A stretch of 56,841 bases of DNA from a virus. Taxonomy: Duplodnaviria > Caudoviricetes. Below are positions 29,201 through 53,115 of this stretch, piece by piece; position 1 is the stretch's first letter; each line of letters starts with the position of its first letter. The notes under the pieces are model-generated. The model worked only from the letters and a program-made list of their open reading frames with translations. It had not been told where the DNA came from and ran no database searches. Position numbers and translations under genes: made by a program. Location of the stretch: the IMG/VR virus record IMGVR_UViG_3300049811_000087, positions 1 to 56,841 of that record; one strand, given 5' to 3'.

Positions 29201-29218
29201 ACAACGCTTATAATGAGA
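29201..29218 (+). promoter_or_regulatory. Conserved phage promoter-like motif, copy 1
   Basis: ACAACGCTTATAATGAGA, upstream of RBS and ATG 29238. Confidence 0.8.
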
Positions 29219-29237
29219 CCCTACGGAAAGGTGAACT

Positions 29238-29525
29238 ATGTTCAACCCCTTCAAACGAGAAGAGGACCGTCAGTTGGATGTCCTGATCAATCGTGTGATC
29301 GACGACATGGAATTGTATGGCCCGGACTCTGAGGAATACCCGAGGTTGGTCGAGACCCTGAAGAAGCTTTACAAGCTGAAGGCGCAACAGAAGCCCCGGC
29401 GCGTGAGCCCAGACACGGTCCTGATCGTCCTCGGGAACATCCTTGGTATTCTGGTCATCGTTGCATACGAAGAGAAGCACGTTATCACATCCAAGGCCTA
29501 CTCGACTTTCGTGAAGAGGAACTAG
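29238..29525 (+). CDS. Membrane protein (cassette-type gene)
   Basis: GAAAGG RBS; VSPDTVLIVLGNILGILVIVAYE TM segment. Confidence 0.7.
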   Translation: MFNPFKREEDRQLDVLINRVIDDMELYGPDSEEYPRLVETLKKLYKLKAQQKPRRVSPDTVLIVLGNILGILVIVAYEEKHVITSKAYSTFVKRN

Positions 29526-29543
29526 TACCATACGGAGGTGCAA

Positions 29544-29590
29544 GCACAGGAGTTGTGTTGGAGAAATCTGACGCAGCTTCTGTGTTTTGC
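29544..29590 (+). terminator. Long GAAA-tetraloop hairpin, probable terminator
   Basis: GCACAGGAGTTGTGTTGGA-GAAA-TCTGACGCAGCTTCTGTGT followed by TTT. Confidence 0.6.
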
Positions 29591-29670
29591 ATTTCTAACA
29601 ACCATTCCTAAAATTGCCTGGGGGGATATTTTGGAAAAAGTTTCCAGGTTTAACAGGGGTGACAAAATTT

Positions 29671-29690
29671 ACAACGCCTATAATGGGAGA
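29671..29690 (+). promoter_or_regulatory. Conserved phage promoter-like motif, copy 2 (heads replication operon)
   Basis: ACAACGCCTATAATGGGAGA. Confidence 0.8.
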
Positions 29691-29747
29691 GTTCCTCACG
29701 TCTTATGACGTGACGTAGTTAACCCAACTACGACGACTTTCTTTTTT
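29685..29747 (+). ncRNA. Structured leader / small RNA (three-way junction plus U-tract)
   Basis: GGGAGAGTT/GACTTTCTT closes two perfect 7-bp hairpins, TCACGTC/GACGTGA and CGTAGTT/AACTACG. Confidence 0.55.
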
Positions 29748-29764
29748 GCATCGGAGGAAACGTT

Positions 29765-29926
29765 ATGAAAAAGGTTTCTGTTTATGAGTATAAAGGAGAA
29801 GCGTTTGTAATGGCAAACTCTAAGAATTACGGGTGCCTTCATTTTATCGGAGACGTTTTGCTCACTCTGCTGACTGGAGGTCTTTGGTTGATCTGGATTT
29901 TTGTTAGGGAGATGCGGCGTAGATGA
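29765..29926 (+). CDS. Small membrane protein (53 aa; not in ORF track)
   Basis: GGAGG RBS; ...FIGDVLLTLLTGGLWLIWIFVREMRRR; ATGA overlap with next gene. Confidence 0.7.
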   Translation: MKKVSVYEYKGEAFVMANSKNYGCLHFIGDVLLTLLTGGLWLIWIFVREMRRR

Positions 29927-30666
29927 TAAAAAACTACATTCGGCAAGCAAACAAGTACGCCTCTAAAAACGCCCCGGCGCTTATGACGGTCGTTGGCGTT
30001 GCTGGAGTCATCACAACAGCCTTTCTTTCGGCTAGTGCGTCGTTCAAGGCTGTGCGGGTAATTGATGCCGCAAAAGAAGAAAACGAGCCATCAGAAGAAC
30101 CGCTTGAACGACTCAAGGAAAACACAAAGCTGGTCTGGAAGCTTTATATTCCGCCAGTTACAACGGGTCTTGTCACAATCGGGGCGATTGCGTACGCACA
30201 TAAGCTCGGTTCAAAGAGAACTGCAGCAGCTATTAGTGCGTATACCATCACAGAACGAGCCTTTGCCGAGTATCGAAATAAGGTCGTTGAAGAAATTGGT
30301 TCGCACCGGGAACAAGTTGTTCGAGACGATATTGCTCGTGATGAAGTATCAAAGAAGTCATCTAACCAGATTATTCTGGCTGGGTCCGGCGAAGTAATGT
30401 GCTGTGAGTTGTACACCCGCAGATATTTCATGTCTGACATGGAGACACTCAGAAAAGCACAGAACGACATCAACAATAGGGCGATGCACGATCTTTATGT
30501 GACTCTTGACGAGTTTTACAATATCGTGAACCTTCCTAGTACCGCTCATTCTGGCGAATTGGGGTGGGATTCAGACCGCCTCATGGATCTGGAATTCTCA
30601 ACCGTTCTTTCCGAAGACGGGCGTCCATGTCTAGCGTTCAATTACAATTACATCAAACCCATTTAA
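29923..30666 (+). CDS. DUF6353-like protein
   Basis: NAPALMTVVGVAGV..TA..S...WKLYIP...Y...E..F.EYR...LDEFY...GW. Confidence 0.65.
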   Translation: MIKNYIRQANKYASKNAPALMTVVGVAGVITTAFLSASASFKAVRVIDAAKEENEPSEEPLERLKENTKLVWKLYIPPVTTGLVTIGAIAYAHKLGSKRTAAAISAYTITERAFAEYRNKVVEEIGSHREQVVRDDIARDEVSKKSSNQIILAGSGEVMCCELYTRRYFMSDMETLRKAQNDINNRAMHDLYVTLDEFYNIVNLPSTAHSGELGWDSDRLMDLEFSTVLSEDGRPCLAFNYNYIKPI

Positions 30667-30678
30667 TACGGAGGAATA

Positions 30679-30849: not shown

Positions 30850-31282
30850 GCGTGCTATTACATACGAGGATTTCAATGGCGAAACGGCCACTGAGACTTT
30901 CTACTTCAATCTGTCCAAGCCTGAATTGGTTGAGTTAGAAGTTGATATGGAGGGTGGTCTCGGTAAGCACATCGAAAGAATTGCGGAGGCCGAGAATAAC
31001 AAGGAGCTCATTGCTCTGTTCAAGCGTGTCATTCTTATTTCCTATGGCATCAAGTCGGACGACGGTAAGAGGTTCGTTAAGTCGGACGAGCTTCGTGCGG
31101 AGTTCGAGTCTCATGCTGCGTACACGGCGTTGTTCATCGAGCTGGCCACAGACGCAAAAGCTGCTGCCGACTTTGTGAATGGCATTATGCCTTCTGACTT
31201 GGTGGAAGCCGCCAAAGCCGATCAAGACAAGCCCACTGGACCTCCTGAGATCACAAAGGAAGCTAATGGATTATCAGGGTAA
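30842..31282 (+). CDS. Conserved hypothetical phage protein
   Basis: MLKRAITYEDFNGE...FYFNLSK.EL...SYG.KSDDGKRFVKS. Confidence 0.7.
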   Translation: MLKRAITYEDFNGETATETFYFNLSKPELVELEVDMEGGLGKHIERIAEAENNKELIALFKRVILISYGIKSDDGKRFVKSDELRAEFESHAAYTALFIELATDAKAAADFVNGIMPSDLVEAAKADQDKPTGPPEITKEANGLSG

Positions 31283-31883
31283 TAGTCATAAGAAGAAGGA
31301 AGCAGAAACTTCTTCTCCGCCAGAAAAAAAGATTGAGCGACTTGAGCTCGAGAGCAAAGTTGTTTCTAGGAAGAAGCCCATTGGAGCTCGGGTAAAGTCA
31401 GTTTTCTTTGGCGGTGAGTTCGACTCTGCAGTTCGGTATATTGGCGCTGAAGTCTTACTTCCAGCGTTTCGAAACCTTTTGGTTGACGCAACCACCAAAG
31501 GTATCGAGCGTATGGTTTACGGGGAATCCAACTACCCAAGGCAGCGTACGCCCGAGTATCGTCCTCGAGTGACCTACAATAGCCCAATTAACCGAGGACC
31601 TCGAGCCAACATTCCAGACCAGCCAAGTCGCCCACAACGAGCTAGGCACGATGACACGGAAATCGTCTTCGGGTCTCGAGGAGATGCCGAGCTTGTTCTC
31701 GATCGCATGCAGGACATCATCGAACAGTACGTGGTTGCTTCTATGGGCGACCTAAACGAGATCGTTGGTCTGCCCACCTCGCCTATTGATAATAAGTGGG
31801 GCTGGGATAACGTTCGACATGCTGAAATTCGACAGACTCGGGATGGGTTCATACTCAATCTCCCGCCAGCACAACCAATCTAA
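31266..31883 (+). CDS. Conserved hypothetical phage protein
   Basis: MDYQGNSH after AAGGA RBS; ...DNKWGW...LNLPPAQPI. Confidence 0.7.
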   Translation: MDYQGNSHKKKEAETSSPPEKKIERLELESKVVSRKKPIGARVKSVFFGGEFDSAVRYIGAEVLLPAFRNLLVDATTKGIERMVYGESNYPRQRTPEYRPRVTYNSPINRGPRANIPDQPSRPQRARHDDTEIVFGSRGDAELVLDRMQDIIEQYVVASMGDLNEIVGLPTSPIDNKWGWDNVRHAEIRQTRDGFILNLPPAQPI

Positions 31884-31896
31884 CCGGAGGACTACT

Positions 31897-32790
31897 ATGA
31901 GATTTGTTCCTAATAAATTGACGAGAAGTATAAACCGCACCATCCTCAAGTCAAAGAAGAATTCGCCCACGTTTTTCTTTGCTGCGGGGGTCGTTGGAGT
32001 TATTGGTGGAACAGCTCTTGCTTGTCGAGCCACGCTTCAGCTTCCCGAAGCTCTTGATGATTTTCAGGAGGAGGTGAATGAGGTCAAGGACATGGGTGAG
32101 AGTCGGGTGGCAAATGATGCCGACACTTACAACGAGCGAGAGTTCTACCGTGATATGCTTTACGTTTACGGCAAGCACAGCATGGGTATCGCGAAGCTGT
32201 ACGCCCCGTCCCTTGCCGTTGGAGCTATTTCTATTGCTTCGTTGACCGGCTCGCATATTACGCTGCAGCGTAGAAACGCCTCACTTACAGCCGCCTTCAC
32301 CGGCGTTGCGACCGCATACGAAGAGTATCGGAAGCGTGTGCAAAAAGAGTTGGGTGCTGAGCATGAACTCGATATTTACCATGCTGCCGAAAACCGTGTT
32401 ATCACTAATTCCGACAACACCAAAGACGTAGCCAAGATTGTAGACCCGAACAAGTGGTCTGCATACGCTAGGATATTTGATGAGAGCTCTCCCTATTGGG
32501 AAAAGAGTCCTCATATTAATCGTCTTTATGTTCAGGCAGCACAGAACTACTTTAACAACAAGCTGCAGGTCCGAGGACACGTGTTTCTTAACGAGGTCTA
32601 CGATCACTTTGGGTTTGAACACACTCAGGCTGGTTCTGTTGTCGGGTGGATCTTAGGTCACGACGGAGACAACTTCATTGATTTCGGCATATTTGATGCC
32701 TACAATTCGGAGTTTGTAAATGGGCTAGAGCGGTCCATTGTCCTTGATTTCAATGTGGACGGCATCATATTTGATAAACTGGAGTCCTGA
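31897..32790 (+). CDS. DUF6353-like protein (paralogue of 29923..30666)
   Basis: KNSP..FFAAGVVGV...ACRAT...YEEYRKRV...HVFLNEVYD...VGW...LDFNVDG. Confidence 0.65.
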   Translation: MRFVPNKLTRSINRTILKSKKNSPTFFFAAGVVGVIGGTALACRATLQLPEALDDFQEEVNEVKDMGESRVANDADTYNEREFYRDMLYVYGKHSMGIAKLYAPSLAVGAISIASLTGSHITLQRRNASLTAAFTGVATAYEEYRKRVQKELGAEHELDIYHAAENRVITNSDNTKDVAKIVDPNKWSAYARIFDESSPYWEKSPHINRLYVQAAQNYFNNKLQVRGHVFLNEVYDHFGFEHTQAGSVVGWILGHDGDNFIDFGIFDAYNSEFVNGLERSIVLDFNVDGIIFDKLES

Positions 32791-33626
32791 TGAACTCATT
32801 ACAATTTTATATTTCAGAATTCACGAAAAACAAGACCTTGGTCAGGGCTACTGCTTTTTGCGGTGGCTTTGGCTTTGGTTTCTATCTAGCTAGTCAGAAA
32901 ACAACCGAAATTGTTATCTATCCGGATGGCGGAGAACCAAACGACGTCAAAGTCGACGAGGATGATAATCCAGACGACGCCGTAATCCTCCATTTTCAAA
33001 AGCGTTTAGACGAGATTGCGGCTGAAGAAGAGGTAGCCGCTTTTGACGACAATCCGGTTATTGACCCGCCAGTAAACGACCCAAAAGATATTCGTGTCGA
33101 TTTAGACAAACTTCGGCATAGAGACGCTCTTATTGAAGAGTTTGGGTATACGGAAGGTATGCGTCGATACCAGAAAGAGTATTCTTTAGGCATGGACACG
33201 ACACCTTCAGAAGAGGCACAGATAGAAAACGTTTTCGGAAAAGACCCTAAGCCGTGGGATCAAGAAGCAGAAAAGGCAGCTCGCACCAACTCGGAAATTT
33301 ACGTTCTGCACAAAGACGAGTTTTGGCGAGACGAGATGGACTATACCCAAACGACTCTCACTTACTATTCCGGCGATGATATTCTTGTAGACCAAGATGA
33401 GGTCCCGATCTACAACTACCGGAACGTTGTCGGAGAGTTGCAGTTCGGGTATGGGTCCGAGGATCGAAATGCCTTCTATGTGCGAAATCATATTCTCAAG
33501 GCAGAATACGAGATTCTCCATGATCGAGGAAGTTATGCTATTGAAGTGCTCGGGTTAGAGTACGAAGAGCAGCAAGAAAGGGCTTCCTTAAAACACTCTC
33601 TCGGTAAATTCAGACCGGATGATTGA
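32790..33626 (+). CDS. Acidic hypothetical protein
   Basis: TLTYYSGDDILVD...YVRN...EYEI; overlapping stop/start. Confidence 0.65.
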   Translation: MNSLQFYISEFTKNKTLVRATAFCGGFGFGFYLASQKTTEIVIYPDGGEPNDVKVDEDDNPDDAVILHFQKRLDEIAAEEEVAAFDDNPVIDPPVNDPKDIRVDLDKLRHRDALIEEFGYTEGMRRYQKEYSLGMDTTPSEEAQIENVFGKDPKPWDQEAEKAARTNSEIYVLHKDEFWRDEMDYTQTTLTYYSGDDILVDQDEVPIYNYRNVVGELQFGYGSEDRNAFYVRNHILKAEYEILHDRGSYAIEVLGLEYEEQQERASLKHSLGKFRPDD

Positions 33627-34153
33627 TCATGGAAGAGTCATTGGAGACCCTGTACTTCGAGTGGCTCTACGCAAAGGTGATGTTATCCGATCAGCCTGCT
33701 CAGTCATACACAAATCTAATTAAAGCTCTATATGATACTGAATTTGTGTGGCTTGTAGTTGGCGATGACAACAGAGCTCAAGATGGACTAGACCTTCGCA
33801 GTGAGTTTTTGGAGGCAGCTCAATTTGACCCTGATTGTGTGTACGATTTCATGTTTGGCTGTACTGTTCTTGAAATGCTGATTGCGTTCTCGAGAAGAGC
33901 CGAGTTTCAAACTGATATTCGTCCTAACGAATGGTTTTGGGAGTTCGTTACAAATCTCGGACTAGCAGACCATCACGATGATGACATAGATATCCAGTCG
34001 GTTAACGATATTCTATACAACTTTGTGTGGAGAACATATGATTATACTGGTTTAGGCGGGTTATTTCCTCTTAACAATCCGCTTGTGGACCAAACTGAGA
34101 TAGAAATCTGGTATCAATTCTGCGCCTATCTTGTTGAGAAAGGCTTTGACTAG
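33623..34153 (+). CDS. Conserved hypothetical phage protein
   Basis: YFEWL...DDNRAQDGLDLR...LEMLIA...GGLFPL...EIWYQ. Confidence 0.65.
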   Translation: MIMEESLETLYFEWLYAKVMLSDQPAQSYTNLIKALYDTEFVWLVVGDDNRAQDGLDLRSEFLEAAQFDPDCVYDFMFGCTVLEMLIAFSRRAEFQTDIRPNEWFWEFVTNLGLADHHDDDIDIQSVNDILYNFVWRTYDYTGLGGLFPLNNPLVDQTEIEIWYQFCAYLVEKGFD

Positions 34154-34165: not shown

Positions 34166-37100
34166 GTGGATTTTTATAATATCGTGGTTAAAGAAAAGAA
34201 AGATGGCGCACTGCAGATCCGCCCTGATTTCAAGGTTGGTAGGTCCAAAGATCTTATGACTCGTGGCGGGGCTTTCTATGCCATCTGGGACGAGGAAAAA
34301 GGTCTTTGGTCTACCGATATTTATGATGTTCAGCGCTTGGTAGACGCCGATCTATACAAGTACCAAGAAGAGATGCTTAATCGAGATGGGGTTAGCCCAA
34401 CCGTTGCTACACTGGAGTCCAACTCTACGAAGCTTTGGGATGAGTTCCAGCGGTTTGTTCGTAATAGCGGTAACAACAGCCACAATCTGGATGAGGTTCT
34501 GACGTTTGCTAACACCGAAGTCAAGAAGACTGACTACGTGAGTAAGCGCCTTCCATATTCTCTTCACCCAGGCAAGACGGACGCATGGGATCAGATCGTG
34601 GGTACGTTATATTCTGAAGAGGAGCGTGAGAAAATTGAATGGGCTATCGGCGCAGTGGTTTCAGGAGATTCTAAGCATATCCAGAAGTTCCTGGTTTTCT
34701 ACGGACCTCCAGGTTCTGGAAAGTCCACCATCCTCAACATTATCCAGAAGCTGTTCGACGGTTACACGGCGGTATTTGATGCCAGAGAACTCGCTGGCAA
34801 TAATAATGCTTTTGCCACTGCAGCCTTTAAGTCAAATCCTCTGGTCGCCATCCAACACGACGGAGATCTCTCCCGAATCTACGACAACACGAAGCTGAAT
34901 TCGATTGTTGCTCATGAGACTATGACGGTCAACGAAAAGTATCGGGCGCCGTTTGAGACCAAGTCAAACGCATTTTTGTTCATGGGAACAAACCTTCCCG
35001 TTAAGATTACAGACGCAAAGTCTGGTATTATTCGGAGGCTAATTGATGTTGTTCCTACTCAACGGACGATTGATCATAATACCTATCATATTCTCATGGA
35101 CCAGATTGATTTTGAGCTGGGAGCAATTGCTTATCTTTGTCTGGAACGATACTTGGCCCTTGGGAAGAATTATTATAGTTCGTATCGGCCAACTGAAATG
35201 ATGCTTCAGACGGACGTCTTCTATAACTTTGTGGAGGCGCACTTTGATATTTTCAAATTAGAAGACGGCGTCACCTTGAAGCGAGCTTGGACTCTTTACA
35301 AAGAGTTCTGTGCTGACACGGGAATCGAAAAGACTCTTCCCCAGTACAAGATCCGAGAGCACCTCAAGGATTATTTCGAAGAGTTTCATGATCGAATCAA
35401 GATAGATGGCGTAGACGTTCGCAGTTACTACAAAGGATTTAAACATTTGGCTCCTGGACCACCAAGGTCTCAGATGCCTGTTAAAACTGACGATCCTTAC
35501 GTTATTGAGCTTGGTGAACACCCCTCGGTATTCGATGAGATGTTCGCAAACCAGCCTGCTCAGTATGCAAACGAGGAAGGTACACCATCTAAGAAGTGGG
35601 AGAACGTAACCACAAAGCTTCGAGATATTGACACCTCGAAACTTCACTACGTTCAGGTGCCAAAAGAACATGTTGTCATTGATTTTGACCTGACCGATGA
35701 AGATGGAAACAAGTCGCTGGAAGCTTGTTTGGAAAAAGCAAAGACTTGGCCCGCAACTTATGCGGAATTGAGTAAAAGTGGTAATGGTCTTCATCTTCAC
35801 TACAACTATCATGGCGATGTTGAAGCGTTGTCTAACGTTTATGGGGTTGGGATCGAAGTCAAAACTCTTCTTGGTAATTCTTCACTGAGAAGGCAGCTAA
35901 CAAAATGTAATATGGTTAATGTTACGCCTCTTTACGAAGGGCTTCCAACTAAGGAGAAAAAGGTGATTGATGCTCAGAGCATAAAGAGTGAACGAGCGCT
36001 GCGAGATCTGATCTCCAGGAACCTTCGAAAAGAAGTTCATCCGGGGACAAAGCCTTCCATTGATTTCATCCACAAGATTTTGAGTGATGCGCACAACAAT
36101 GGGTTGTCTTACGACGTAAGAGACATGCGTGGCGATATTCTTAGTTTTGCTGCGATGAGTACTAATCATGCTACCGACTGCATCAAGTTGGTGCAAAAGA
36201 TGGAATTTGTCGGGCAGAACGAGATGCCCGTGATTACTTCAGCTGACGAGAAACCTTTGGTCTTCTTTGATGTTGAGGTATATCCTAATCTCTTTGTCGT
36301 TTGCTGGAAAGCCGAAGATTCTGCTGACGTTGCTAAGTTGATTAACCCGTCCTCGGAAGAAATTGAAGAGCTCCTTACCCATAAGCTTGTGGGCTTCAAC
36401 AACCGTCGATACGACAATCATATTCTCTATGCTCGATATCTTGGGTATTCGATTGACGAGCTTTATAACCTCAGCAACCGAATCATCAACGGAGGCTCAA
36501 GCCGAGATGTCATGTTTGGAGAAGCCTACAATCTTTCGTATGCGGATATTTACGACTTTAGCTCCAAAAAGCAGGGCTTGAAGAAGTTCCAAATCGAGCT
36601 GGGTATCCTTCACATGGAGCTCGATATTCCCTGGGATAAACCTGTTCCTGAAGACCTTTGGGATAAGGTCGTAACATATTGTCAGAACGACGTGATGGCA
36701 ACCGAAGCGGTCTTTAAGAATCGTATTCAAGACTTCAACGCCAGGAAGATTCTCGCCGAATTGTCGGGTCTTTCAGTTAATCATACCACGCAAGCCCATA
36801 CGGCTAAGATCATATTTGGTGATGATAAACGACCCCAAGATAAGTTTGTTTACACCGATCTAAGCAAAGAGTTCCCCGGTTATATATTTGACGGGAAAGA
36901 GAGTTACTATAAGGGCGAGATCACAGGTGAAGGTGGTTACGTATATGCTGAGCCGGGTATTTATGAGAATGTGGCGCTTCTTGACGTTGCGAGTATGCAT
37001 CCGACGTCCATTGAGTGCCTCGACTTATTTGGGCCGTATACGAGCAGATTCGCTGACCTTAAAGCGGCACGTTTGGCAATTAAGCATAAGGACTACGCAA

Positions 37101-37900
37101 CAGCCGGGCGCCTCCTGGACGGTAAGCTCGGACCGTTTGTCGGAGGCACTGATGAAGACCTGGAAGCTCTGTCTTACGCTCTTAAGATCGTAATCAACAT
37201 TGTCTATGGTTTGACCAGCGCTCGATTCGACAACCCCTTCAGAGATTTCCGAAACAAGGATAACATTGTCGCCAAGCGAGGCGCTTTGTTCATGATCGAT
37301 CTCAAAGAAGCGGTGCAAGATCGAGGCTTTACGGTTGCACATATTAAGACGGACTCCATCAAGATCCCGAACGCAACGCCGGAGATCATTGAGTTTGTCA
37401 CCCAGTTTGGTCGAGAGTACGGATACGACTTCGAGCACGAGGGAACCTATGACAAATTCTGCTTGGTCAACGATGCGGTTTATATTGCTAAAGAAGATAA
37501 TCACTGGAATGCTGTTGGGGCTCAGTTTCAACATCCGTACGTCTACAAGACTTTATTTACGCATGAGCCGATTGAATTCGAGGATTACTGCGAAGCCCGA
37601 AGCGTTATTCAAGGGGTCATGTACCTCGACTTCGTTGGGGACGGCAATCTCTCCGATTTCAAGCACGTCGGAAGGACTGGAATGTTCGTTCCAGTTAAAT
37701 CCGGAGGCGGCTCGCTTCTTAGAGTCAAGGATGAAAAAGCCTACGCCGTGACAGGGACCAAAGACTATAAGTGGGTCGAGTCTTCTGTTGCTAAGGAAAA
37801 CCCAGACATTGAGGTAGACTACTCATATTTCGAAGACCTTGTTACAAAGGCCAAAGAAGCAATTGAGAAGTTTGGCTCTTTTGATGAGTTTGTGAGTTAA
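34166..37900 (+). CDS. Multifunctional replicase: SF3 (D5-like) helicase + AEP primase + 3'-5' exonuclease + family B DNA polymerase
   Basis: GPPGSGKST; VIDFD...SKSGNGLHLHY; FFDVEV, GFNNRRYD, YCQNDV; LDVASMHP, KIVINIVYG, IKTDS. Confidence 0.88.
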   Translation: MDFYNIVVKEKKDGALQIRPDFKVGRSKDLMTRGGAFYAIWDEEKGLWSTDIYDVQRLVDADLYKYQEEMLNRDGVSPTVATLESNSTKLWDEFQRFVRNSGNNSHNLDEVLTFANTEVKKTDYVSKRLPYSLHPGKTDAWDQIVGTLYSEEEREKIEWAIGAVVSGDSKHIQKFLVFYGPPGSGKSTILNIIQKLFDGYTAVFDARELAGNNNAFATAAFKSNPLVAIQHDGDLSRIYDNTKLNSIVAHETMTVNEKYRAPFETKSNAFLFMGTNLPVKITDAKSGIIRRLIDVVPTQRTIDHNTYHILMDQIDFELGAIAYLCLERYLALGKNYYSSYRPTEMMLQTDVFYNFVEAHFDIFKLEDGVTLKRAWTLYKEFCADTGIEKTLPQYKIREHLKDYFEEFHDRIKIDGVDVRSYYKGFKHLAPGPPRSQMPVKTDDPYVIELGEHPSVFDEMFANQPAQYANEEGTPSKKWENVTTKLRDIDTSKLHYVQVPKEHVVIDFDLTDEDGNKSLEACLEKAKTWPATYAELSKSGNGLHLHYNYHGDVEALSNVYGVGIEVKTLLGNSSLRRQLTKCNMVNVTPLYEGLPTKEKKVIDAQSIKSERALRDLISRNLRKEVHPGTKPSIDFIHKILSDAHNNGLSYDVRDMRGDILSFAAMSTNHATDCIKLVQKMEFVGQNEMPVITSADEKPLVFFDVEVYPNLFVVCWKAEDSADVAKLINPSSEEIEELLTHKLVGFNNRRYDNHILYARYLGYSIDELYNLSNRIINGGSSRDVMFGEAYNLSYADIYDFSSKKQGLKKFQIELGILHMELDIPWDKPVPEDLWDKVVTYCQNDVMATEAVFKNRIQDFNARKILAELSGLSVNHTTQAHTAKIIFGDDKRPQDKFVYTDLSKEFPGYIFDGKESYYKGEITGEGGYVYAEPGIYENVALLDVASMHPTSIECLDLFGPYTSRFADLKAARLAIKHKDYATAGRLLDGKLGPFVGGTDEDLEALSYALKIVINIVYGLTSARFDNPFRDFRNKDNIVAKRGALFMIDLKEAVQDRGFTVAHIKTDSIKIPNATPEIIEFVTQFGREYGYDFEHEGTYDKFCLVNDAVYIAKEDNHWNAVGAQFQHPYVYKTLFTHEPIEFEDYCEARSVIQGVMYLDFVGDGNLSDFKHVGRTGMFVPVKSGGGSLLRVKDEKAYAVTGTKDYKWVESSVAKENPDIEVDYSYFEDLVTKAKEAIEKFGSFDEFVS

Positions 37901-39351: not shown

Positions 39352-39546
39352 ATGAAGATCAAGAGTCCTGAACAGTTGGTTATTGGTGATGTTATTCCTA
39401 ACTGGGGAGCCGATCTGGTTGTTAAACACACAGCGCCGGAGCCTCTGGGGTATGACATTCCTCTTAGTATTCGGGTTGAGTTTGAAAGCGGCAGGTATGC
39501 CAATTACCCTGTAGGAACTGCAATCCGAGTTGTAGATAAAGGGTAA
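39352..39546 (+). CDS. Hypothetical protein
   Basis: AAGGAG RBS; LVIGDVI SH3-like start. Confidence 0.55.
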   Translation: MKIKSPEQLVIGDVIPNWGADLVVKHTAPEPLGYDIPLSIRVEFESGRYANYPVGTAIRVVDKG

Positions 39547-39554
39547 CAAAATCT

Positions 39555-39575
39555 ACAACGCCTATAATGAAGAGA
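39555..39575 (+). promoter_or_regulatory. Conserved phage promoter-like motif, copy 3 (heads accessory/tRNA operon)
   Basis: TAACA-N6-ACAACGCCTATAATGAAGAGA. Confidence 0.8.
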
Positions 39576-39634
39576 AAGGCGATATCGAATGATATTACCT
39601 GTGGATTCCCATCCACACCTCTTCTTTTATTTTT
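39569..39634 (+). ncRNA. Structured leader / small RNA (three-way junction plus U-tract)
   Basis: GAAGAG/CTCTTC closes GGCGATATC/GATATTACC and TGTGGAT/ATCCACA hairpins, then TTTTATTTTT. Confidence 0.55.
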
Positions 39635-39651
39635 CCATGAAAGGATTAAGA

Positions 39652-39864
39652 ATGACATTAACTTCTAAGGTTGGCAAGTTCATTTTTGCTGACCACTGTG
39701 AGCTGTCCAAAGCTAAGCTGATTCGGGATACCGTGATGGGGCAAATCCTGAATCCGCCCGAGGGCAGTCAAAGGCTTCCGAGAGATGAAAAGGCTATTTT
39801 CACTTTCGTAGCCAGTGCATTCAAAAAGGACGCTCCCAAGCGGGAGGCCATCGTCCTTTCATGA
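39652..39864 (+). CDS. Hypothetical protein
   Basis: AAAGGA RBS before ATG 39652. Confidence 0.55.
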   Translation: MTLTSKVGKFIFADHCELSKAKLIRDTVMGQILNPPEGSQRLPRDEKAIFTFVASAFKKDAPKREAIVLS

Positions 39865-42313: not shown

Positions 42314-42387
42314 GCTCCTCTAGCTCAATTGGTTAGAGCAACGGACTTTTAATCCGAAGGTTCTGGGTTCAAGTCCCAGGGGGAGCA
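42314..42387 (+). tRNA. tRNA-Lys(UUU)
   Basis: GCTCCTC/GGGGAGC acceptor, GCTC/GAGC D stem, CTTTTAA anticodon loop, GTTCAAGT T loop; CCA not encoded. Confidence 0.9.
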
Positions 42388-42423
42388 CTGTAATCAACCA
42401 TTTTTAATTCAAAGGAGAGTGCC

Positions 42424-44321: not shown

Positions 44322-44397
44322 GGGCCGGTAGCATGTTCTGGTAAATGCACCGAGCTTATATCTCGGCGATAGGTGGGTTCAAATCCCCCCCGGCCTA
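44322..44397 (+). tRNA. tRNA-Ile(UAU)
   Basis: GGGCCGG/CCGGCCT acceptor, GCAT/ATGC D stem, CCGAG-CTTATAT-CTCGG anticodon arm, GTTCAAAT T loop. Confidence 0.85.
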
Positions 44398-44414
44398 CTA
44401 ACAGAAAGAAACTT

Positions 44415-44618
44415 ATGTTTGTTAAACTAGGAACAACGCATTACAACCCCCAACACATTATAAGCATTGAGCCAATGTTTCTGAATTTCCATACTGATAA
44501 ATGGGAAATTAGAATGAGTCTTTCAAACGGAGCTTTAATCCAACTTTATACTGGAACGAAACAAGAAGTGCTTGTTGAGCTTGATGAAATTATGGAAGTG
44601 ATTCAAGAGGCCTCATGA
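44415..44618 (+). CDS. Hypothetical protein
   Basis: ATG 44415 (MFVKLG...NPQHI); the track start lies inside the tRNA. Confidence 0.55.
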   Translation: MFVKLGTTHYNPQHIISIEPMFLNFHTDKWEIRMSLSNGALIQLYTGTKQEVLVELDEIMEVIQEAS

Positions 44619-45698: not shown

Positions 45699-45783
45699 GC
45701 CACCATGGCGGAATAGGCAGACGCATTCGGCTTAAACCCGAAGGACTGTGATGGTCGTGGGGGTTCGAATCCCCCTGGTGGCA
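45699..45783 (+). tRNA. tRNA-Leu(UAA)
   Basis: GCCACCA/TGGTGGC acceptor, TTCGG-CTTAAAC-CCGAA anticodon arm, long variable arm, GGGGG-TTCGAAT-CCCCC T arm. Confidence 0.9.
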
Positions 45784-45856
45784 CGCTGAAAAGCAAACAA
45801 AAAAGTGGGGCCCGACATAGTAATCAAAACACTAATGAAGCGTAATAATAGAAAAC

Positions 45857-46246: not shown

Positions 46247-46265
46247 GCAAAAACTAACAAAATTC

Positions 46266-46285
46266 ACAACGCTTATAATGAGAGA
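46266..46285 (+). promoter_or_regulatory. Promoter-like motif copy 4
   Basis: ACAACGCTTATAATGAGAGA. Confidence 0.8.
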
Positions 46286-46314
46286 GAACACCAACCCCAT
46301 ACGGAGGAATCATC

Positions 46315-46554
46315 ATGGAAGAGTTCAACAGCATCGAGACCGAGCTGGAGACCGACACCGAAGAGACTGACACCGAGGCAGGTTCGGTTCTTGCCACCGT
46401 CGCCGTGTTCGGCATCGGCACCATCGTGGGTGCTGCTGCTGCACGTGGCTACGACAAGGCGAAGACCACCGTCAAGGAGCAGCTCGAGGCTCGTCGGGCC
46501 CGCAAGGCCGCGATCGCGAACGCCATCGAGACCACCGCCACAGAGGCGAAGTGA
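46315..46554 (+). CDS. Cassette gene: acidic N-terminus plus hydrophobic segment
   Basis: GGAGG RBS; GC3-rich codons. Confidence 0.7.
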   Translation: MEEFNSIETELETDTEETDTEAGSVLATVAVFGIGTIVGAAAARGYDKAKTTVKEQLEARRARKAAIANAIETTATEAK

Positions 46555-46610: not shown

Positions 46611-46621
46611 AAACAACTTTT

Positions 46622-46641
46622 ACAACGCCTATAATGAGAGA
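46622..46641 (+). promoter_or_regulatory. Promoter-like motif copy 5
   Basis: ACAACGCCTATAATGAGAGA. Confidence 0.8.
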
Positions 46642-46658
46642 CTACCAAAGGAGTTTAA

Positions 46659-46886: not shown

Positions 46887-47072
46887 ATGTTTTTAGTTTT
46901 TATCCCACTGGGAATTTCTGCAGCGACTCTGGCGTACACCTATGTTGTGAGTAAGAAGATCAAAGAAGATATTGCTGTGTTGGATGGTACTCTCGAGGGT
47001 CTTATTGACGCTTTATATCAGGAACGCATTGACGGTATGTTTAAATTTATAACAGAAGAGCTCGACGATTAG
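46887..47072 (+). CDS. Small membrane protein
   Basis: AAGGAG RBS; N-terminal TM; no promoter motif of its own. Confidence 0.6.
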   Translation: MFLVFIPLGISAATLAYTYVVSKKIKEDIAVLDGTLEGLIDALYQERIDGMFKFITEELDD

Positions 47073-47080
47073 CATTTTTC

Positions 47081-47100
47081 GCAACGCTTATAATGAGAGA
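47081..47100 (+). promoter_or_regulatory. Promoter-like motif copy 6
   Basis: GCAACGCTTATAATGAGAGA. Confidence 0.8.
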
Positions 47101-47117
47101 CTACAGAGGAGAATGCA

Positions 47118-47290: not shown

Positions 47291-47330
47291 AAAAGTTGAG
47301 GGGGTTACTACAACCCCTCTTCTTTTTTCT
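47291..47330 (+). terminator. Intrinsic terminator
   Basis: GAGGGGGTT/AACCCCTC stem plus T-tract. Confidence 0.7.
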
Positions 47331-47340
47331 AACATATTTC

Positions 47341-47360
47341 ACAACGCCTATAATGAGAGA
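47341..47360 (+). promoter_or_regulatory. Promoter-like motif copy 7
   Basis: ACAACGCCTATAATGAGAGA. Confidence 0.8.
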
Positions 47361-47378
47361 CTACCAAAGGAGTAACCT

Positions 47379-47560: not shown

Positions 47561-47600
47561 TCAAAAGGAGAAGGCCCCACAAGGCTTTCTCTTTTTTCTT
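47561..47600 (+). terminator. Intrinsic terminator (repeat family)
   Basis: AAAAGGAGAAGGCC-CCACAA-GGCTTTCTCTTTTTT. Confidence 0.75.
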
Positions 47601-47610
47601 AACATTTTTC

Positions 47611-47630
47611 GCAACGCTTATAATGAGAGA
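47611..47630 (+). promoter_or_regulatory. Promoter-like motif copy 8
   Basis: GCAACGCTTATAATGAGAGA. Confidence 0.8.
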
Positions 47631-47644
47631 CATAAGGAGAAATC

Positions 47645-47781: not shown

Positions 47782-47820
47782 TCAAAAAGAGGGGGCCCCA
47801 CAAGGCTTTCTCTTTTTTCT
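47782..47820 (+). terminator. Intrinsic terminator (repeat family)
   Basis: AAAAAGAGGGGGCC-CCACAA-GGCTTTCTCTTTTTT. Confidence 0.75.
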
Positions 47821-47830
47821 AACATTTTTC

Positions 47831-47850
47831 GCAACGCTTATAATGAGAGA
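47831..47850 (+). promoter_or_regulatory. Promoter-like motif copy 9
   Basis: GCAACGCTTATAATGAGAGA. Confidence 0.8.
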
Positions 47851-47867
47851 CAACAAGAGGAGACATA

Positions 47868-48080: not shown

Positions 48081-48091
48081 TAACATTATCT

Positions 48092-48111
48092 ACAATGCTT
48101 ATAATGAGAGA
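48092..48111 (+). promoter_or_regulatory. Promoter-like motif copy 10
   Basis: ACAATGCTTATAATGAGAGA. Confidence 0.78.
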
Positions 48112-48127
48112 CACAGAAGGAGAAATC

Positions 48128-48311: not shown

Positions 48312-48322
48312 TAACATGTTCT

Positions 48323-48342
48323 ACAACGCCTATAATGAGAGA
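48323..48342 (+). promoter_or_regulatory. Promoter-like motif copy 11
   Basis: ACAACGCCTATAATGAGAGA. Confidence 0.8.
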
Positions 48343-48361
48343 CGACAAAAGGAGAATTGTC

Positions 48362-48588: not shown

Positions 48589-48601
48589 GCTAACAAAAAC
48601 T

Positions 48602-48621
48602 ACAACGCCTATAATGAGAGA
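48602..48621 (+). promoter_or_regulatory. Promoter-like motif copy 12
   Basis: ACAACGCCTATAATGAGAGA. Confidence 0.8.
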
Positions 48622-48639
48622 CAACAGAAGGAGATTGTA

Positions 48640-49299: not shown

Positions 49300-49451
49300 T
49301 GTCAGAGAAGCCTGTCGGTAAAGAGACGTACGAGATTCTCAAGATCCTTAAGCAGACCTACATCGATGAGGGTCTGTGGATGAAGAATCGTATTCGGTGC
49401 GAGAACATCCAGGCAGACATCGACCTTTACGAGAGGTTCAACAAAAAATAA
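49299..49451 (+). CDS. Hypothetical protein, 50 aa (not in ORF track)
   Basis: AAGGAG RBS, TAATG overlap; MSEKPVGKETYEILK... Confidence 0.6.
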   Translation: MSEKPVGKETYEILKILKQTYIDEGLWMKNRIRCENIQADIDLYERFNKK

Positions 49452-49459
49452 CAGGTTTT

Positions 49460-49479
49460 ACAACGCTTATAACGAGAGA
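49460..49479 (+). promoter_or_regulatory. Promoter-like motif copy 13
   Basis: ACAACGCTTATAACGAGAGA. Confidence 0.75.
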
Positions 49480-49496
49480 CAACAGAAGGAGTTGTA

Positions 49497-49775: not shown

Positions 49776-49787
49776 GTCACATTATTC

Positions 49788-49807
49788 ACAACGCTTATAA
49801 TGAGAGA
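49788..49807 (+). promoter_or_regulatory. Promoter-like motif copy 14
   Basis: ACAACGCTTATAATGAGAGA. Confidence 0.8.
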
Positions 49808-49826
49808 CAACCATAAGGAGACTAAG

Positions 49827-50572: not shown

Positions 50573-50590
50573 AGTCTATGGAGGAATTTA

Positions 50591-51070
50591 ATGACTAGAA
50601 CACGAACTGAACAACCATTACAAATGGGAGCGCGTAAAAAAGCTCGTCGTCTTCATAAAGTGGAAAGCATGATTGCCGAACTTCAATCTGAATATGAAGA
50701 ATTAAGAGCTGATCTCTTAGACTGGAAATGGCGTGAGTCTAAGCGTCTTGGTGTTGATGTTCCCGCCAATGCTCTTTTGTTAGACATTCTTGAGCTTATT
50801 GAAATAACGGAGGATGACAAATGGCTTTGGTTAGGTGTTACTAACAACAAAAACCTGCCGACCATTCGGTATCGAGATGGTCAAAAGGCTCACGAGCGCT
50901 CTGTTGTGCGCGTGCTTGCTGAGTTTTTTGAAATCATTGATGAAGACTGGGAAGGCACGTTGTATCCTACAAATGGTACTGACGATGTAAATCCTTGGCA
51001 CCGGGAATTGAGAGCTCTTCCTGAAGGTAAGTTTAGAGGAACTCCTAGAGGAGTCTATAAATTTGAGTAG
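50591..51070 (+). CDS. Hypothetical protein, possibly degenerate HNH-like
   Basis: GGAGG RBS; WLWLG......P......VNPWH resembles an HNH lacking the Cys/His residues. Confidence 0.5.
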   Translation: MTRTRTEQPLQMGARKKARRLHKVESMIAELQSEYEELRADLLDWKWRESKRLGVDVPANALLLDILELIEITEDDKWLWLGVTNNKNLPTIRYRDGQKAHERSVVRVLAEFFEIIDEDWEGTLYPTNGTDDVNPWHRELRALPEGKFRGTPRGVYKFE

Positions 51071-51073
51071 GAG

Positions 51074-52276
51074 ATGACTATGGCCGAAGTAGAACTAAGA
51101 CCACATCAAGAGGAAGCAGTAAAGAATCTAGCTAACGGTAAAATCTTGTATGGCGGTGTGGGTAGCGGGAAAACAAGAACAGTACTAGCATACTACAGAG
51201 AAAAGGAGTCACCTCGTGACATCGTCGTCATCACAACTGCGAAAAAGCGTGACAGTCTCGATTGGGAAAGAGAGGCCGCAAGGTTTGGAATATCCACAGC
51301 TTCTGAGTATACTTCAGACGGCGCTCTCCTTGTGGAGTCATGGAACAACATTGGAAAGCTTGAGCATCTACGAGACCGATTCTTCATTTTTGACGAACAG
51401 CGACTCGTGGGTAATGGAGCTTGGGTTAAGTCATTCCTCAAAATTTCCAGAAACAACCGATGGGTTCTTCTCAGCGCTACCCCCGGAGATTCGTGGATGG
51501 ATTACGCCCCTGTCTTCATAGCCAATGGGTTCTACAAAAACATTACTGAGTTTAAGATGAAGCACGTCATCTATGAAGCATTCTCACGTTACCCTAAAAT
51601 CAAAGGGTACTATAATGAATCTAGACTCGAGATTCTCAGGAACGACGTGTTGGTGGAGATGCCTTATGAACGTCACACTACTCGTATGTTGAACTATCTT
51701 GAGGTGGATTACAACCATAATCTGTTTAACACGGTGTTTCTACGTCGCTGGAATTATGTGGACGACAAGCCAATTAAAGATATTGCTGAGGTCTTTAGGC
51801 TGATGCGGAGAGTCGTCAATTCTCACCCGTCAAGACTTCACATGATTCGAAAGCTTATGACGTGTCATGACAAATTGATTATATTCTACACTTTTAATTA
51901 CGAACTTGATATCCTGCGAGAGTTAAGTTCAGAGATTACGGTTGCTGAGTGGAACGGACATAAGAAAGAACCAATCCCAGATACTGACAAATGGCTTTAT
52001 CTTGTACAGTATACGTCGGGTGCTGAAGGTTGGAATTGTACGTCCACGAACGCAATGATCATGTATTCTCTGACATATTCATACAAGAATTTCGAGCAAG
52101 CACAAGGTCGAATTGACCGCCTAGACACCCAATATGACACGCTTTACTACTATATCTTGGCGTCAAATTCGGTGATTGATCGTGGAATTCGAAATGCGTT
52201 GTCCCGAAAAAAAAGCTTCAACGAGCGTAAATTCTACGATAATTTGATAGATTCTTTCGAATTTGAAGAATGTTGA
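51074..52276 (+). CDS. SF2 (SNF2/DEAD-like) helicase
   Basis: LRPHQ, GVGSGKT, FDEQR, LSATP, AEGWN, QAQGRIDR. Confidence 0.85.
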   Translation: MTMAEVELRPHQEEAVKNLANGKILYGGVGSGKTRTVLAYYREKESPRDIVVITTAKKRDSLDWEREAARFGISTASEYTSDGALLVESWNNIGKLEHLRDRFFIFDEQRLVGNGAWVKSFLKISRNNRWVLLSATPGDSWMDYAPVFIANGFYKNITEFKMKHVIYEAFSRYPKIKGYYNESRLEILRNDVLVEMPYERHTTRMLNYLEVDYNHNLFNTVFLRRWNYVDDKPIKDIAEVFRLMRRVVNSHPSRLHMIRKLMTCHDKLIIFYTFNYELDILRELSSEITVAEWNGHKKEPIPDTDKWLYLVQYTSGAEGWNCTSTNAMIMYSLTYSYKNFEQAQGRIDRLDTQYDTLYYYILASNSVIDRGIRNALSRKKSFNERKFYDNLIDSFEFEEC

Positions 52277-52279
52277 AAA

Positions 52280-52545
52280 AAAAGTCGTTCAAAAACGACG
52301 CCGCTATATAGTAGAAATGGGGTATAATTTGAGTGTAAATGGGTATGAAAGTGCATGAAAGTAGTCGAAAACGCAATATTTTGTGGTGGGGCGTCGGCGT
52401 CATATATTTTTTGTAAAAACTTTATATATTTTTATACCTCTATACGACCTATATGGTGGTGTACGTAGTATAAGGGTGACATTTTATACAAAACTTTTTG
52501 AACCCCTAAATTTACCAAAAACGACGCCTCACCACAAAAGATAGG
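52280..52545. other. Non-coding AT-rich region with 18-bp inverted repeat; candidate replication origin
   Basis: TTTTGTGGTGGGGCGTCG (52379-52396) / CGACGCCTCACCACAAAA (52522-52539); AAAAACGACGCC occurs twice. Confidence 0.4.
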
Positions 52546-52555
52546 AGATTTTCTT

Positions 52556-53074
52556 ATGAGAGGACGATGGAGACCAATTCCAGACTTCCCCGAATACCTT
52601 GTGAACGACCATGGTCAGGTCTATAACACACGTACAGATTCGCTTATGGCGGAAAGCACAACAAGACAAGGAGACCTTAAAGTAACTTTGTCAAAAAACG
52701 GAGAAAGAGTAACCAGATCTGTTAGGGTTTTAGTTGCCGAAGCCTTTGTCGCTAAACCACCAACAGTAGAAGGATTTCATAAGTCTTCTATCCCTGACAC
52801 GGTTATAGTCTTAGATAATGATAAAGACAATTTAATCGCTTCAAACTTAGCTTGGCGTCCAGCCTGGTTTGCATGGAAATACGCAAGACAGTTCCAACCG
52901 TCGTATAGACCTGAGTTCTATTCAAAGCGTGTTATGAATCTCTCAACACGACGTACATATTCTTCAATTTTAGAAGCTGGTGTAACGGAAGGCCTTTTAT
53001 TTGATGACATCTTTAGATCAGCAGTTACGGGTTGTCATATCTACCCAACACAAACGAATTACGTTTTTGTATGA
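52556..53074 (+). CDS. NUMOD4 - degenerate HNH - NUMOD1-like protein
   Basis: WRPIPDFPEYLVNDHGQV (NUMOD4); LVAEAF...DNDKDN...NLAW lacks the HNH His. Confidence 0.7.
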   Translation: MRGRWRPIPDFPEYLVNDHGQVYNTRTDSLMAESTTRQGDLKVTLSKNGERVTRSVRVLVAEAFVAKPPTVEGFHKSSIPDTVIVLDNDKDNLIASNLAWRPAWFAWKYARQFQPSYRPEFYSKRVMNLSTRRTYSSILEAGVTEGLLFDDIFRSAVTGCHIYPTQTNYVFV

Positions 53075-53094
53075 CGTATACGGTAATTCCTTCT

Positions 53095-53115
53095 ACAACG
53101 TATATAATAGAGAGA
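53095..53115 (+). promoter_or_regulatory. Promoter-like motif copy 15 (variant; heads nuclease-RNAP operon)
   Basis: ACAACGTATATAATAGAGAGA followed by a 12-bp hairpin. Confidence 0.65.

Follow-up and report, generated by a model that had tools for sequence, protein, structure and literature searches.

The stretch of DNA analysed here, referred to as the window, is the entire IMG/VR virus record IMGVR_UViG_3300049811_000087 (56,841 bp, 46% G+C, completeness rating ~95%), and all of its long open reading frames (ORFs) lie on the + strand. Beyond the tail genes it carries 15 copies of a repeated element of the form TAACA-N9-ACAACGCY-TATAAT-GAGAGAC, and its far right end is occupied by the gene for an 890-aa protein (53981–56653, + strand) with a GADFDGD motif and three helix-turn-helix (HTH) modules, a candidate single-chain two-barrel RNA polymerase. 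From left to right, the record encodes an amidase and other wall-active enzymes (65–9795), head and tail genes in the order HNH, connector, large terminase, portal, protease–capsid fusion, 1800-aa tape measure and tail genes (to ~29.2 kb), and a right arm. In the right arm, small genes come with a primase-polymerase (34166–37900) and an ssDNA-binding protein, followed by three tRNAs, further small genes, a helicase and nucleases. This gene layout is that of the Arthrobacter cluster AM/AU phages, described as having the lysin ahead of the terminase, and small membrane-protein genes arrayed after the tail genes (PMC5513430).

Repeated elements in the window

The original prediction, made from the sequence of the window, listed 15 copies of a promoter-like motif, all intergenic and on the + strand. 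Every listed position was found to hold the motif, and none of the 15 copies lies in the virion region (1–29.2 kb), as had also been stated. The core CAACGCYTATAAT occurs as 11 exact copies, two copies with one mismatch (48093 and 49461) and one with two (53096). When up to two mismatches were allowed, 19 matches were obtained against 2.06 expected, a number reached in none of 100 shuffles. The remaining matches at this threshold (4081, 5773 and 27360 on the + strand, 44457 on the − strand) are located inside ORFs without the flanking blocks, and were not accepted as members. The minus-strand match (44457–44469) is a one-mismatch 13-mer inside ORF 44373–44618, has neither TAACA nor a GAGA start, and was rejected; it is probably a chance occurrence (about 0.1 expected). 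The longer form CAACGCYTATAATGRGAGA, at up to two mismatches, gave 13 forward matches, no reverse match and none in a backwards-read control.

Aligned on TATAAT, the 15 copies read TAACA, three loose bases, Ttt(A/G)CAACGC(T/C), TATAAT and GAGAGAC.AC. The upstream blocks, TAACA and (T/C)(T/C)ACA, end 14 and 5 nt upstream of TATAAT, the former spacing being the one originally given. TAACA is exact in 10/15 copies, with one mismatch in 4/15 and two mismatches in 1/15 (53096), and TATAAT is exact in all copies except that at 49461, which has TATAAC. Conservation had been described as continuous, and in the 15-copy alignment it runs unbroken from TAACA to GAGAGAC.AC, over ~35 bp, with unbroken information content from ACAACGC via TATAAT to GAGAGAC.

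The individual copies, all on the + strand, were located by motif scan and alignment. Copy 1 (29190–29224; TAACA..ATACAACGCT TATAAT GAGACCCTAC) precedes a 95-aa ORF (29238–29525) with homologues in 12 of the 22 relatives compared, and its downstream part is similar to the actinophage consensus GAGACCCCTAC. Copy 2 (29660–29694) reads TGACA..TTACAACGCC TATAAT GGGAGAG, and copy 3 (39544–39578) TAACA..CTACAACGCC TATAAT GAAGAG. These are followed by copies 4 (46255–46289), 5 (46611–46645), 6 (47070–47104, with the pentamer TAGCA), 7 (47330–47364), 8 (47600–47634), 9 (47820–47854), 10 (48081–48115, a CAATGC variant), 11 (48312–48346), 12 (48591–48625), 13 (49449–49483, the TATAAC variant) and 14 (49777–49811, with the pentamer TCACA), the last of which heads a unit reaching the helicase gene. 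Copy 15 (53084–53118) belongs to a variant class without TAACA, reading CTACAACGTA TATAAT and then an all-purine run, AGAGAGAGAGG, and sits upstream of the nuclease–exonuclease–polymerase operon.

Immediately upstream of eight of the 15 copies (copies 5, 7–12 and 14) there is a GC-rich hairpin (−16 to −20 kcal/mol) followed by 7–8 T (within 10 nt), and 4 of these 8 hairpins also pass a stricter terminator scan. Terminator-like sites are enriched only between 38 and 56.8 kb (29 vs 16.2 ± 4.2 in shuffles), the remaining two parts of the genome giving 17 vs 17.9 and 21 vs 18.9. On the downstream side, every copy lies ahead of either a structured leader or, at a distance of 20–53 nt, a Shine-Dalgarno (SD) sequence with start codon; 12/15 copies are followed by an SD and start codon within 20–35 nt, and the other three (29672, 39556 and 53096) by structured leaders with U-runs. 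The first ORF after a copy encodes a hydrophobic segment in 9/15 cases (maximum Kyte-Doolittle value over 19 residues >1.9). Between 46315 and 50039 the first ORF of each copy mostly encodes 44–79 aa with one hydrophobic segment, and the first ORFs in 46–50 kb have a homologue in none of the 22 relatives; similar small membrane-protein arrays have been noted in the cluster AM/AU phages.

The leader of copy 3 (39569–39634) is predicted to fold into a compact structured RNA or attenuator, closed by the helix GAAGAG:CUCUUC and followed by a U-run (39569–39640: −21 kcal/mol, z −4.32, 0/200 shuffles), with a terminator-like site at 39600–39617. The helix begins at the G directly after TATAAT, in line with the earlier remark that the leader structures start there. 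The fold (~60 nt, ends paired) overlaps the start of ORF 39589–39864, for which none of the 22 relatives has a homologue, and it could represent a small RNA or attenuator instead of a gene start. Downstream of copy 2 lies a structured leader carrying a U-run (29685–29746, fold z −2.4). In copy 15, the base next to TATAAT is the first of a hairpin with a U-run (53109–53150, z −2.31; terminator-like at 53112–53140), which may be an attenuator of the polymerase operon. Comparable hairpin/U-run leaders follow the equivalent promoters of phage 1706 (NC_010576.1), near 46476, and P078 (NC_024215.1), near 45384.

Recurrence in related phages

Comparison of the 46–54 kb part of the window with a phage collection by megablast gave no DNA match. 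At the protein level, homologues of the 890-aa protein (38–54% identity) are present in 250 GenBank phage records, with Arthrobacter, Gordonia, Streptomyces, Lactococcus, Curtobacterium, Rhodococcus, Microbacterium and Faecalibacterium as hosts, and also in human-associated contigs. Ten named relatives were chosen by homology of this protein alone, and their records were analysed whole. The motif architecture was found on the coding strand in 9 of the 10, from Lactococcus to Streptomyces phages. Matches to TTACANNNNNTATAAT with up to one mismatch (forward/reverse) numbered 12/0 in the window, 8/0 in Mudcat, 16/1 in 1706, 6/0 in Rickmore, 10/0 in OlympicHelado, 6/0 in Tokki, 12/0 in StarLord, 6/0 in Bing and 15/5 in P078, with shuffle means of 0–3.6.

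The consensus for the Streptomyces and Gordonia phages is (c)TCGCA-N4/5-(T)TTACA-N5-TATAAT-GAGACCCCTAC, and that for the Arthrobacter phages is the same except for GAGAAG. HotFries has the form TCGCA-N14-TATAGT-GAGACCCCTAC, Lactococcus phage 1706 cACA-N5-TTTTACA-N5-TATAGT-AGAAAGAAGG, and P078 TTTTA-agTTTTACATACCC-TATAAT-GA(A/G)AGGA. The spacing is fixed throughout the family, the pentamer ending 14 nt and TTACA 5 nt upstream of the hexamer, and the start is the purine-rich GAGA. As for arrangement, the relatives have a cluster of motifs just downstream of the tail genes, and one variant copy with an all-purine start upstream of the nuclease–exonuclease–polymerase operon, like 53096 in the window. 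The variant class was located at this operon in Mudcat (55515), StarLord (50495), Tokki (53661), G023 (14113), G024 (1054) and G035 (47635), so that the variant originally claimed upstream of the polymerase's own operon is present both in the window, as copy 15, and in its relatives.

The tenth relative, FP_oengus (MG711463.1), encodes a homologue at 43.7% identity but gave no motif match (0/0 forward/reverse), and inspection of its k-mers and intergenic regions revealed no clear substitute motif. This genome has ~50 same-strand 9-mers resembling (N)TGATATTT (one-mismatch neighbourhoods) across its length, and TTGCAAAAA recurs in both of the long intergenic regions that flank the polymerase operon.

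In the reverse direction, IMG/VR was scanned for TTACA-N5-TATAATGAGA, which yielded at least 117 stretches, and 47 records were searched for a homologue of the 890-aa protein. The homologue is encoded in 22 of the 47 records, the remaining 25 being 8–69% complete; among the motif-bearing records rated at least 90% complete, all 12 encode it. Twelve motif-bearing records taken whole have 38–56% G+C and carry the motif on the polymerase strand, with forward/reverse counts such as 16/0 (G023), 15/1 (G024), 10/0 (G003) and 10/0 (G035). As these records were found through the motif, they are uninformative on its frequency in the family. Contigs found via the protein alone also carry copies where there is sufficient DNA; a 19-kb fragment has none.

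Of the relatives found, G053 is the closest: its polymerase shares 70% identity with that of the window, and its promoters are also the most window-like, with the pentamers CCACA, CCGCA and CAACA and the starts GAGAGAAAC or GAGACAACC. Its polymerase match (L240, G053:C1:407–3073, − strand) contains one in-frame TAA.

In low-G+C relatives, the element is also present 8–10 nt upstream of apparent tRNA genes (..TAGCTCAATTGG..), as at G024 38709, G040 35896 and 47368, G009 30215, G007 35208 and 44689, L020 5077 and P078 24006. If those genes are tRNAs, the promoter system would also drive tRNA expression.

The motif is a family signal, not private to the window phage, and accompanies the DFDGD/HTH protein in phages of different host phyla. 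Since it is common to Lactococcus, Streptomyces, Gordonia and Arthrobacter phages, host-specific factors cannot explain it. Its copies are strand-specific and lie after terminators and before SD-ATG, tRNA or small-RNA starts, and hence behave as promoters. We consider it very unlikely that the elements are instead RNA processing or stability signals, translation-enhancing leaders or phage-repressor operators. Start-associated sequences are known from cluster K mycobacteriophages and offer a comparison for translation-enhancing leaders; the elements described here are always just 5′ of start codons, and in many relatives their most conserved part is on the transcribed side, abutting the SD (GAGACCCCTAC-GAAAGGA). 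However, the conserved blocks reach 25 nt upstream of TATAAT, the AT-rich hexamer stands at a fixed distance from these duplex blocks as in a promoter, and the hairpins with T-runs directly before 8/15 copies would stop incoming transcripts. In relatives, moreover, the element precedes tRNA genes and structured non-coding RNAs without an SD.

Fit to sigma-A promoters and the start site

The motif fits an ordinary sigma-A promoter poorly, as had been claimed from its geometry. The two have the TATAAT hexamer in common, with 14/15 copies at TATAAT and 1/15 at TATAAC. In contrast, a scan for TTGACA-16..18-TATAAT was passed by only 2/15 copies (49774 and 48587), and the TG of an extended −10 is present in 0/15, the hexamer being preceded by CGC(T/C) in 14/15. 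The motif further differs in having a conserved spacer sequence, and there is no genome-wide enrichment of sigma-70-like sites, which per genome third number 15 vs 21.7, 22 vs 24.2 and 30 vs 30.2 in shuffles and do not exceed chance in any third. The first 10 bases on the transcribed side are conserved above the hexamer in the Streptomyces and Gordonia phages, GAGACCCCTAC being invariant where TATAAT varies.

A survey of start sites covered 193 copies in 22 genomes, with FP_oengus excluded; the named phages were hand-curated (in-ORF matches without a purine start were dropped), and the IMG/VR genomes were filtered automatically. An SD and ORF are present within 60 nt in 131 of the 193 copies, and in none of these 131 is the start codon less than 13 nt from the hexamer. 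In 16/131 copies, all in low-G+C genomes, the SD core begins 0–6 nt after the hexamer, as in G024 (TATAAT followed directly by GAGGAGGTGAAAACTATG) and 1706 (TATAGT followed directly by AGAAGGAGGACACTAACATG). A sigma-type open complex starts RNA 6–9 nt after the −10. Such a start would remove the adjacent SDs, so that the transcripts probably begin at the hexamer edge; the 13-nt lower limit corresponds to the room needed for an SD and spacer in an RNA starting directly after the hexamer. In the window the SD is 7–23 nt after the hexamer, which is compatible with either start, so that the window alone is not decisive here; its leader helices (39569 and 53109) agree with a start at the base that follows TATAAT. 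Judging by these helices and by the position of the SD in relatives, the RNA start is probably the purine directly after TATAAT.

These data bear on the main alternative, which we regard as rather unlikely, in which host sigma-A holoenzyme uses TATAAT and the purine-rich discriminator, while the upstream blocks bind a phage-coded adaptor or activator in place of contact with a −35, in the manner of MotA/AsiA at T4 middle promoters. The −10 is perfect in 14/15 copies, as this proposal would have it. Nevertheless, 13/15 copies lack a −35 at 16–18 bp and none has the TG, a start fixed by sigma-A would delete the SD in the 16/131 copies where its core lies 0–6 nt after the hexamer, and the invariance of GAGACCCCTAC in phages with a variable hexamer is also at odds with it.

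The 890-aa protein

The GADFDGD sequence of the 890-aa protein (residues 509–515) matches the DxDGD metal-binding loop, and the catalytic loop DFDGD itself (residues 511–515; 55511–55525, + strand) is invariant in 12/12 aligned sequences. Of the three HTH modules, two lie close to the N-terminus and the third is C-terminal. HTH2 (about residues 96–116; 54266–54328, + strand) has the recognition helix TSTYKTLL, where most relatives have ES(S/T)VRxLL, and the C-terminal HTH3 (56579–56641, + strand) matches HTH_23 and, below cut-off, is sigma-70 region-4-like. The protein matches phrog_4291 (E = 0), a family named RNA-dependent RNA polymerase. A sequence profile search of the PDB with the protein found HTH matches only and no polymerase, the family having no detectable sequence match to solved polymerases.

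An AlphaFold (AF2) model was built from a 12-sequence alignment and used for fold-class assignment alone. In a Foldseek comparison with the PDB, the best 50 of at least 500 matches (E ≤ 10) are all polymerases. The top 5 (E ≤ 0.001) are all QDE-1 (best E 1e-4); after these come Pol IV/II largest subunits, RDR2 and the gp64 structure 8f72, of the P23-45 type (202 columns, rmsd 5.5). On this model, with a pLDDT of 66, the fold of the protein resembles that of two-barrel polymerases, and we regard it as a candidate single-chain two-barrel RNA polymerase. The phage 1706 protein has been placed among YonO-like families by sequence (PMC2919709), and the DxDGD and HTH features of this ‘supercluster’ have been noted and a possible polymerase activity proposed (10.1101/842583); the accessible text of neither paper mentions promoters.

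Other candidate enzymes were sought in six frames of the window. Sigma70_r2 gave no match, and r4_2 matched best, though below cut-off, at the C-terminus of the 890-aa protein, this being the only sigma-r4-like HTH found in the window. T7-type RNA_pol (PF00940) gave no match at E ≤ 1, a negative that is weakly validated as the control genomes gave none either. No sigma factor or known appropriator was found by the six-frame Sigma70_r2/r4_2 searches and Pfam searches of 29 ORFs, which did not include the MotA/AsiA families. The 890-aa protein is the only polymerase candidate found. Given a polymerase-like protein with HTH modules and no sigma or T7-type match, the simplest model is that the 890-aa enzyme initiates at the motif.

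In the model the polymerase opens with 35 disordered residues, which nevertheless include the invariant residues H17, Y18, G19, S24, G25, R26, Y27, G30 and S31. The peptide (D/E)xxLxHYGxxRxSGRYPWGSG (residues 14–32, 54020–54076) resembles the DUF7211 peptide LxHYGVKGMKWGVR(K/R) (L.HYGVKGMKWGVR), which opens two window ORFs flanking the terminase gene (10565–10993 and 12809–13321); relatives have 1–5 DUF7211-type ORFs in the head region. Pfam DUF7211 made no call on the polymerase even at E ≤ 10, and no paper mentioning DUF7211 was found in the literature search. An hhalign match of the polymerase N-terminus to DUF7211 (93%) was discarded as circular, because both sets had been chosen by a regular expression containing HYG..WG. 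The peptide may be a targeting or cleavage signal common to the polymerase and the DUF7211 proteins. If it were a capsid-targeting signal, one could speculate that the polymerase is injected with the DNA.

Covariation of the motif with the HTH sequence, which the original prediction had suggested as a check, was seen in part. Pentamers without CG are found in the window (TAACA) and P078 (TTTTA), and the same two genomes have HTH2 helices that have lost the Glu and Arg (TSTYK and PGSVT, respectively), which are kept in 17 TCGCR-bearing genomes. These two genomes fit, whereas Bing, G025, 1706 and G053 contradict or blur the pattern: Bing keeps TCGCA with an HTH2 of DTTVG, and G053 keeps ESTFR despite its pentamers CCACA, CCGCA and CAACA. 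The covariation between HTH2 and the pentamer is thus partial, a suggestive lead.

Other features of the genome

The 10-kb module ahead of the head genes (65–9795) encodes, besides the amidase, a 626-aa alpha/beta-hydrolase that matches BD-FAE and Peptidase_S9, and a 656-aa protein that matches GDPD weakly; several further ORFs have no family. ORF 1607–1936 is the only one in this module common to all 22 relatives. A single 667-aa ORF (14858–16861) matches a head-maturation-protease PHROG over residues 2–619 and Pfam Phage_capsid at 381–584, and is a protease–capsid fusion as described for the Arthrobacter cluster AM/AU phages. The three tRNA genes, Lys-UUU (42314–42388), Ile-UAU (44322–44398) and Leu-UAA (45699–45784), all read A-ending codons, which would suit a phage of 46% G+C in a host of higher G+C. 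A motif copy lies directly upstream of none of them.

Proposed mechanism and comparison with known systems

On a narrow balance, we favour the interpretation that the 15 elements are promoters bound directly by the phage-encoded 890-aa two-barrel polymerase, through its built-in HTH domains. The HTH modules would read the two duplex blocks, the pentamer TAACA at about −25 to −21 and (T)(T/C)ACA at about −16 to −12; TATAAT, at about −6 to −1, would be the melting region, and RNA would start at the purine directly after it (+1 GAGAGA). Each promoter would drive a short unit closed by an intrinsic terminator and consisting of a gene for a small membrane protein, a small structured RNA or, in longer form, a replication operon. 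The variant promoter, with its all-purine start and leader hairpin with U-run, would head the operon that contains the polymerase gene. Recognition of the motif by the DFDGD protein had been the central claim of the original prediction; promoter behaviour, geometry and co-travel with the gene speak for it, while the initiating enzyme, together with the exact +1 and the assignment of HTH modules to blocks, is a part that we infer.

Several points weigh against direct binding by the 890-aa protein. The link between enzyme and site is drawn from sequence comparison; as both motif and gene are lineage traits, their co-occurrence cannot separate a phage polymerase from a host polymerase with a phage factor. 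FP_oengus has the gene but not the motif, and Bing and G053 are exceptions to the covariation. Pfam RdRP (PF05183) scored 15.2 bits on the protein, below the cut-off of 23.8 (E 0.009), the AF2 model is mediocre (pLDDT 66, pTM 0.46), and the Foldseek TM-scores are ~0.2. TATAAT is exactly the universal sigma-A −10 hexamer, and a G-rich discriminator after TATAAT favours −35-independent host promoters. Small early-gene arrays in which each gene has its own promoter and terminator are classically host-transcribed, as in SPO1, T4 and T5. Furthermore, as the polymerase operon carries the same type of promoter, the first enzyme must be virion-borne or host-made. YonO, the one characterised relative from a bacterial virus, is reported to make late transcripts (PMC5467207). 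Finally, the right arm encodes conserved proteins without assigned function (29923–30666, 31179–31883, 31765–32790 and 33623–34153), present in 20–22 of the 22 relatives.

Some of these points would be accommodated if the sites were read by host sigma-A holoenzyme with a phage adaptor. The HTH part of the 890-aa protein could act as the factor, as could a conserved protein without assigned function, of which four are available, and the two-barrel polymerase would serve another class of genes, for example late genes, as YonO does (PMC5467207, accessible text). The bootstrapping problem would vanish, the small-gene arrays with their own terminators, headed by the motif, have the usual look of early genes, and the virion genes (1–29 kb), lacking a copy, must be expressed by some other route. 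On the other side, no sigma factor or known appropriator was found in the searches described above, in which the MotA/AsiA families were not included.

Direct recognition by the 890-aa polymerase can also be put in a more ambitious form, which we hold tentatively and with some doubt: a sigma-free, single-polypeptide two-barrel polymerase with three HTH modules and a tripartite ~35-bp promoter (pentamer at −25, TTACA at −16 and TATAAT at −6 to −1), starting at the next base, would have been kept from Lactococcus to Streptomyces phages as a compact, host-independent system, the enzyme maybe being carried in the virion. If virion-carried, the polymerase would fire the small-gene arrays on entry, and it would feed back on its own operon through the variant promoter with the attenuator-like leader.

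The promoter of a T7-type phage RNA polymerase is ~23 bp long, with TATA at −4 to −1 and GGGAGA from +1. The motif resembles it in being a contiguous block (20–35 bp) with an AT-rich melting segment, including −4 to −1, that abuts a purine-rich start (+1 to +6), and in occurring as many near-identical copies on one strand, each unit being closed by a terminator. By kind, then, the motif family would belong with phage-polymerase-specific promoters, an assignment we think slightly the more probable one. Unlike T7 promoters, the element is longer, has two separate upstream duplex blocks, and has an AT-rich part that is the sigma-A −10 hexamer; the candidate enzyme is a two-barrel DFDGD protein, and no T7-type RNA_pol gene was found.

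The T4 middle promoters depend on sigma appropriation by MotA/AsiA, with a start 6–9 nt after the −10 and an unconserved transcribed side. The motif is similar in combining a normal −10 with a phage-specific upstream box at a spacing different from that of the host −35, its blocks ending 5 and 14 nt before TATAAT being compatible with such a geometry, and differs in that SD adjacency favours a start at the hexamer edge and the first 7–11 bases are conserved.

Among two-barrel enzymes, the 890-aa protein is like YonO of the Bacillus prophage SPbeta in being a phage-encoded single polypeptide with a DxDGD two-barrel core. YonO is reported to make one long late transcript, its promoter sequence being left undetermined in the accessible text (PMC5467207). 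The 890-aa protein, in contrast, has three HTH modules, and its candidate promoters are many and head non-virion genes. Thermus phage P23-45 has two sigma-independent two-barrel enzymes, gp96 in the virion and gp64 outside it, each with its own dedicated promoter motif upstream of mapped starts (bioRxiv 10.1101/2022.12.01.518664), and its gp64-type structure 8f72 is among the fold matches. The P23-45 motifs are AT-rich and GC-rich and, in the accessible text, no HTH fusions are reported (10.1101/2022.12.01.518664); there the link between enzyme and promoter was made by chromatin immunoprecipitation sequencing (ChIP-seq) and start-site mapping, whereas that of the window family is made by comparative sequence analysis alone.

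What is new is the motif shared across the phage family, the DFDGD/polymerase-like call on the protein family being already known from sequence. No description of this promoter family was found in the literature search, which did not take in supplements or the original 1706 and ReqiPepy6/Poco6 papers, and searches with strings of the motif sequence gave no relevant paper among the matches listed. The word ‘promoter’ occurs 0 times in the main texts of Koert et al. (10.1101/842583) and Klyczek et al. (PMC5513430), and the P078/P092 genome note mentions neither promoters nor the polymerase.

How a YonO-like single-chain polymerase finds its promoters was left open, in the accessible text, by the paper characterising YonO (PMC5467207). 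With many natural promoter variants in harmless, cultivable hosts (Arthrobacter, Gordonia, Streptomyces and Lactococcus), this question is directly testable in the present family. If the 890-aa enzyme does read these sites, they would constitute a new promoter class for two-barrel polymerases, would explain the small membrane-protein gene arrays reported for the Arthrobacter cluster AM/AU phages (PMC5513430), and may yield a small orthogonal system for gene expression in Gram-positive bacteria. Should they be read by host polymerase instead, the family would show an unusual, phylum-spanning redirection of host polymerase.

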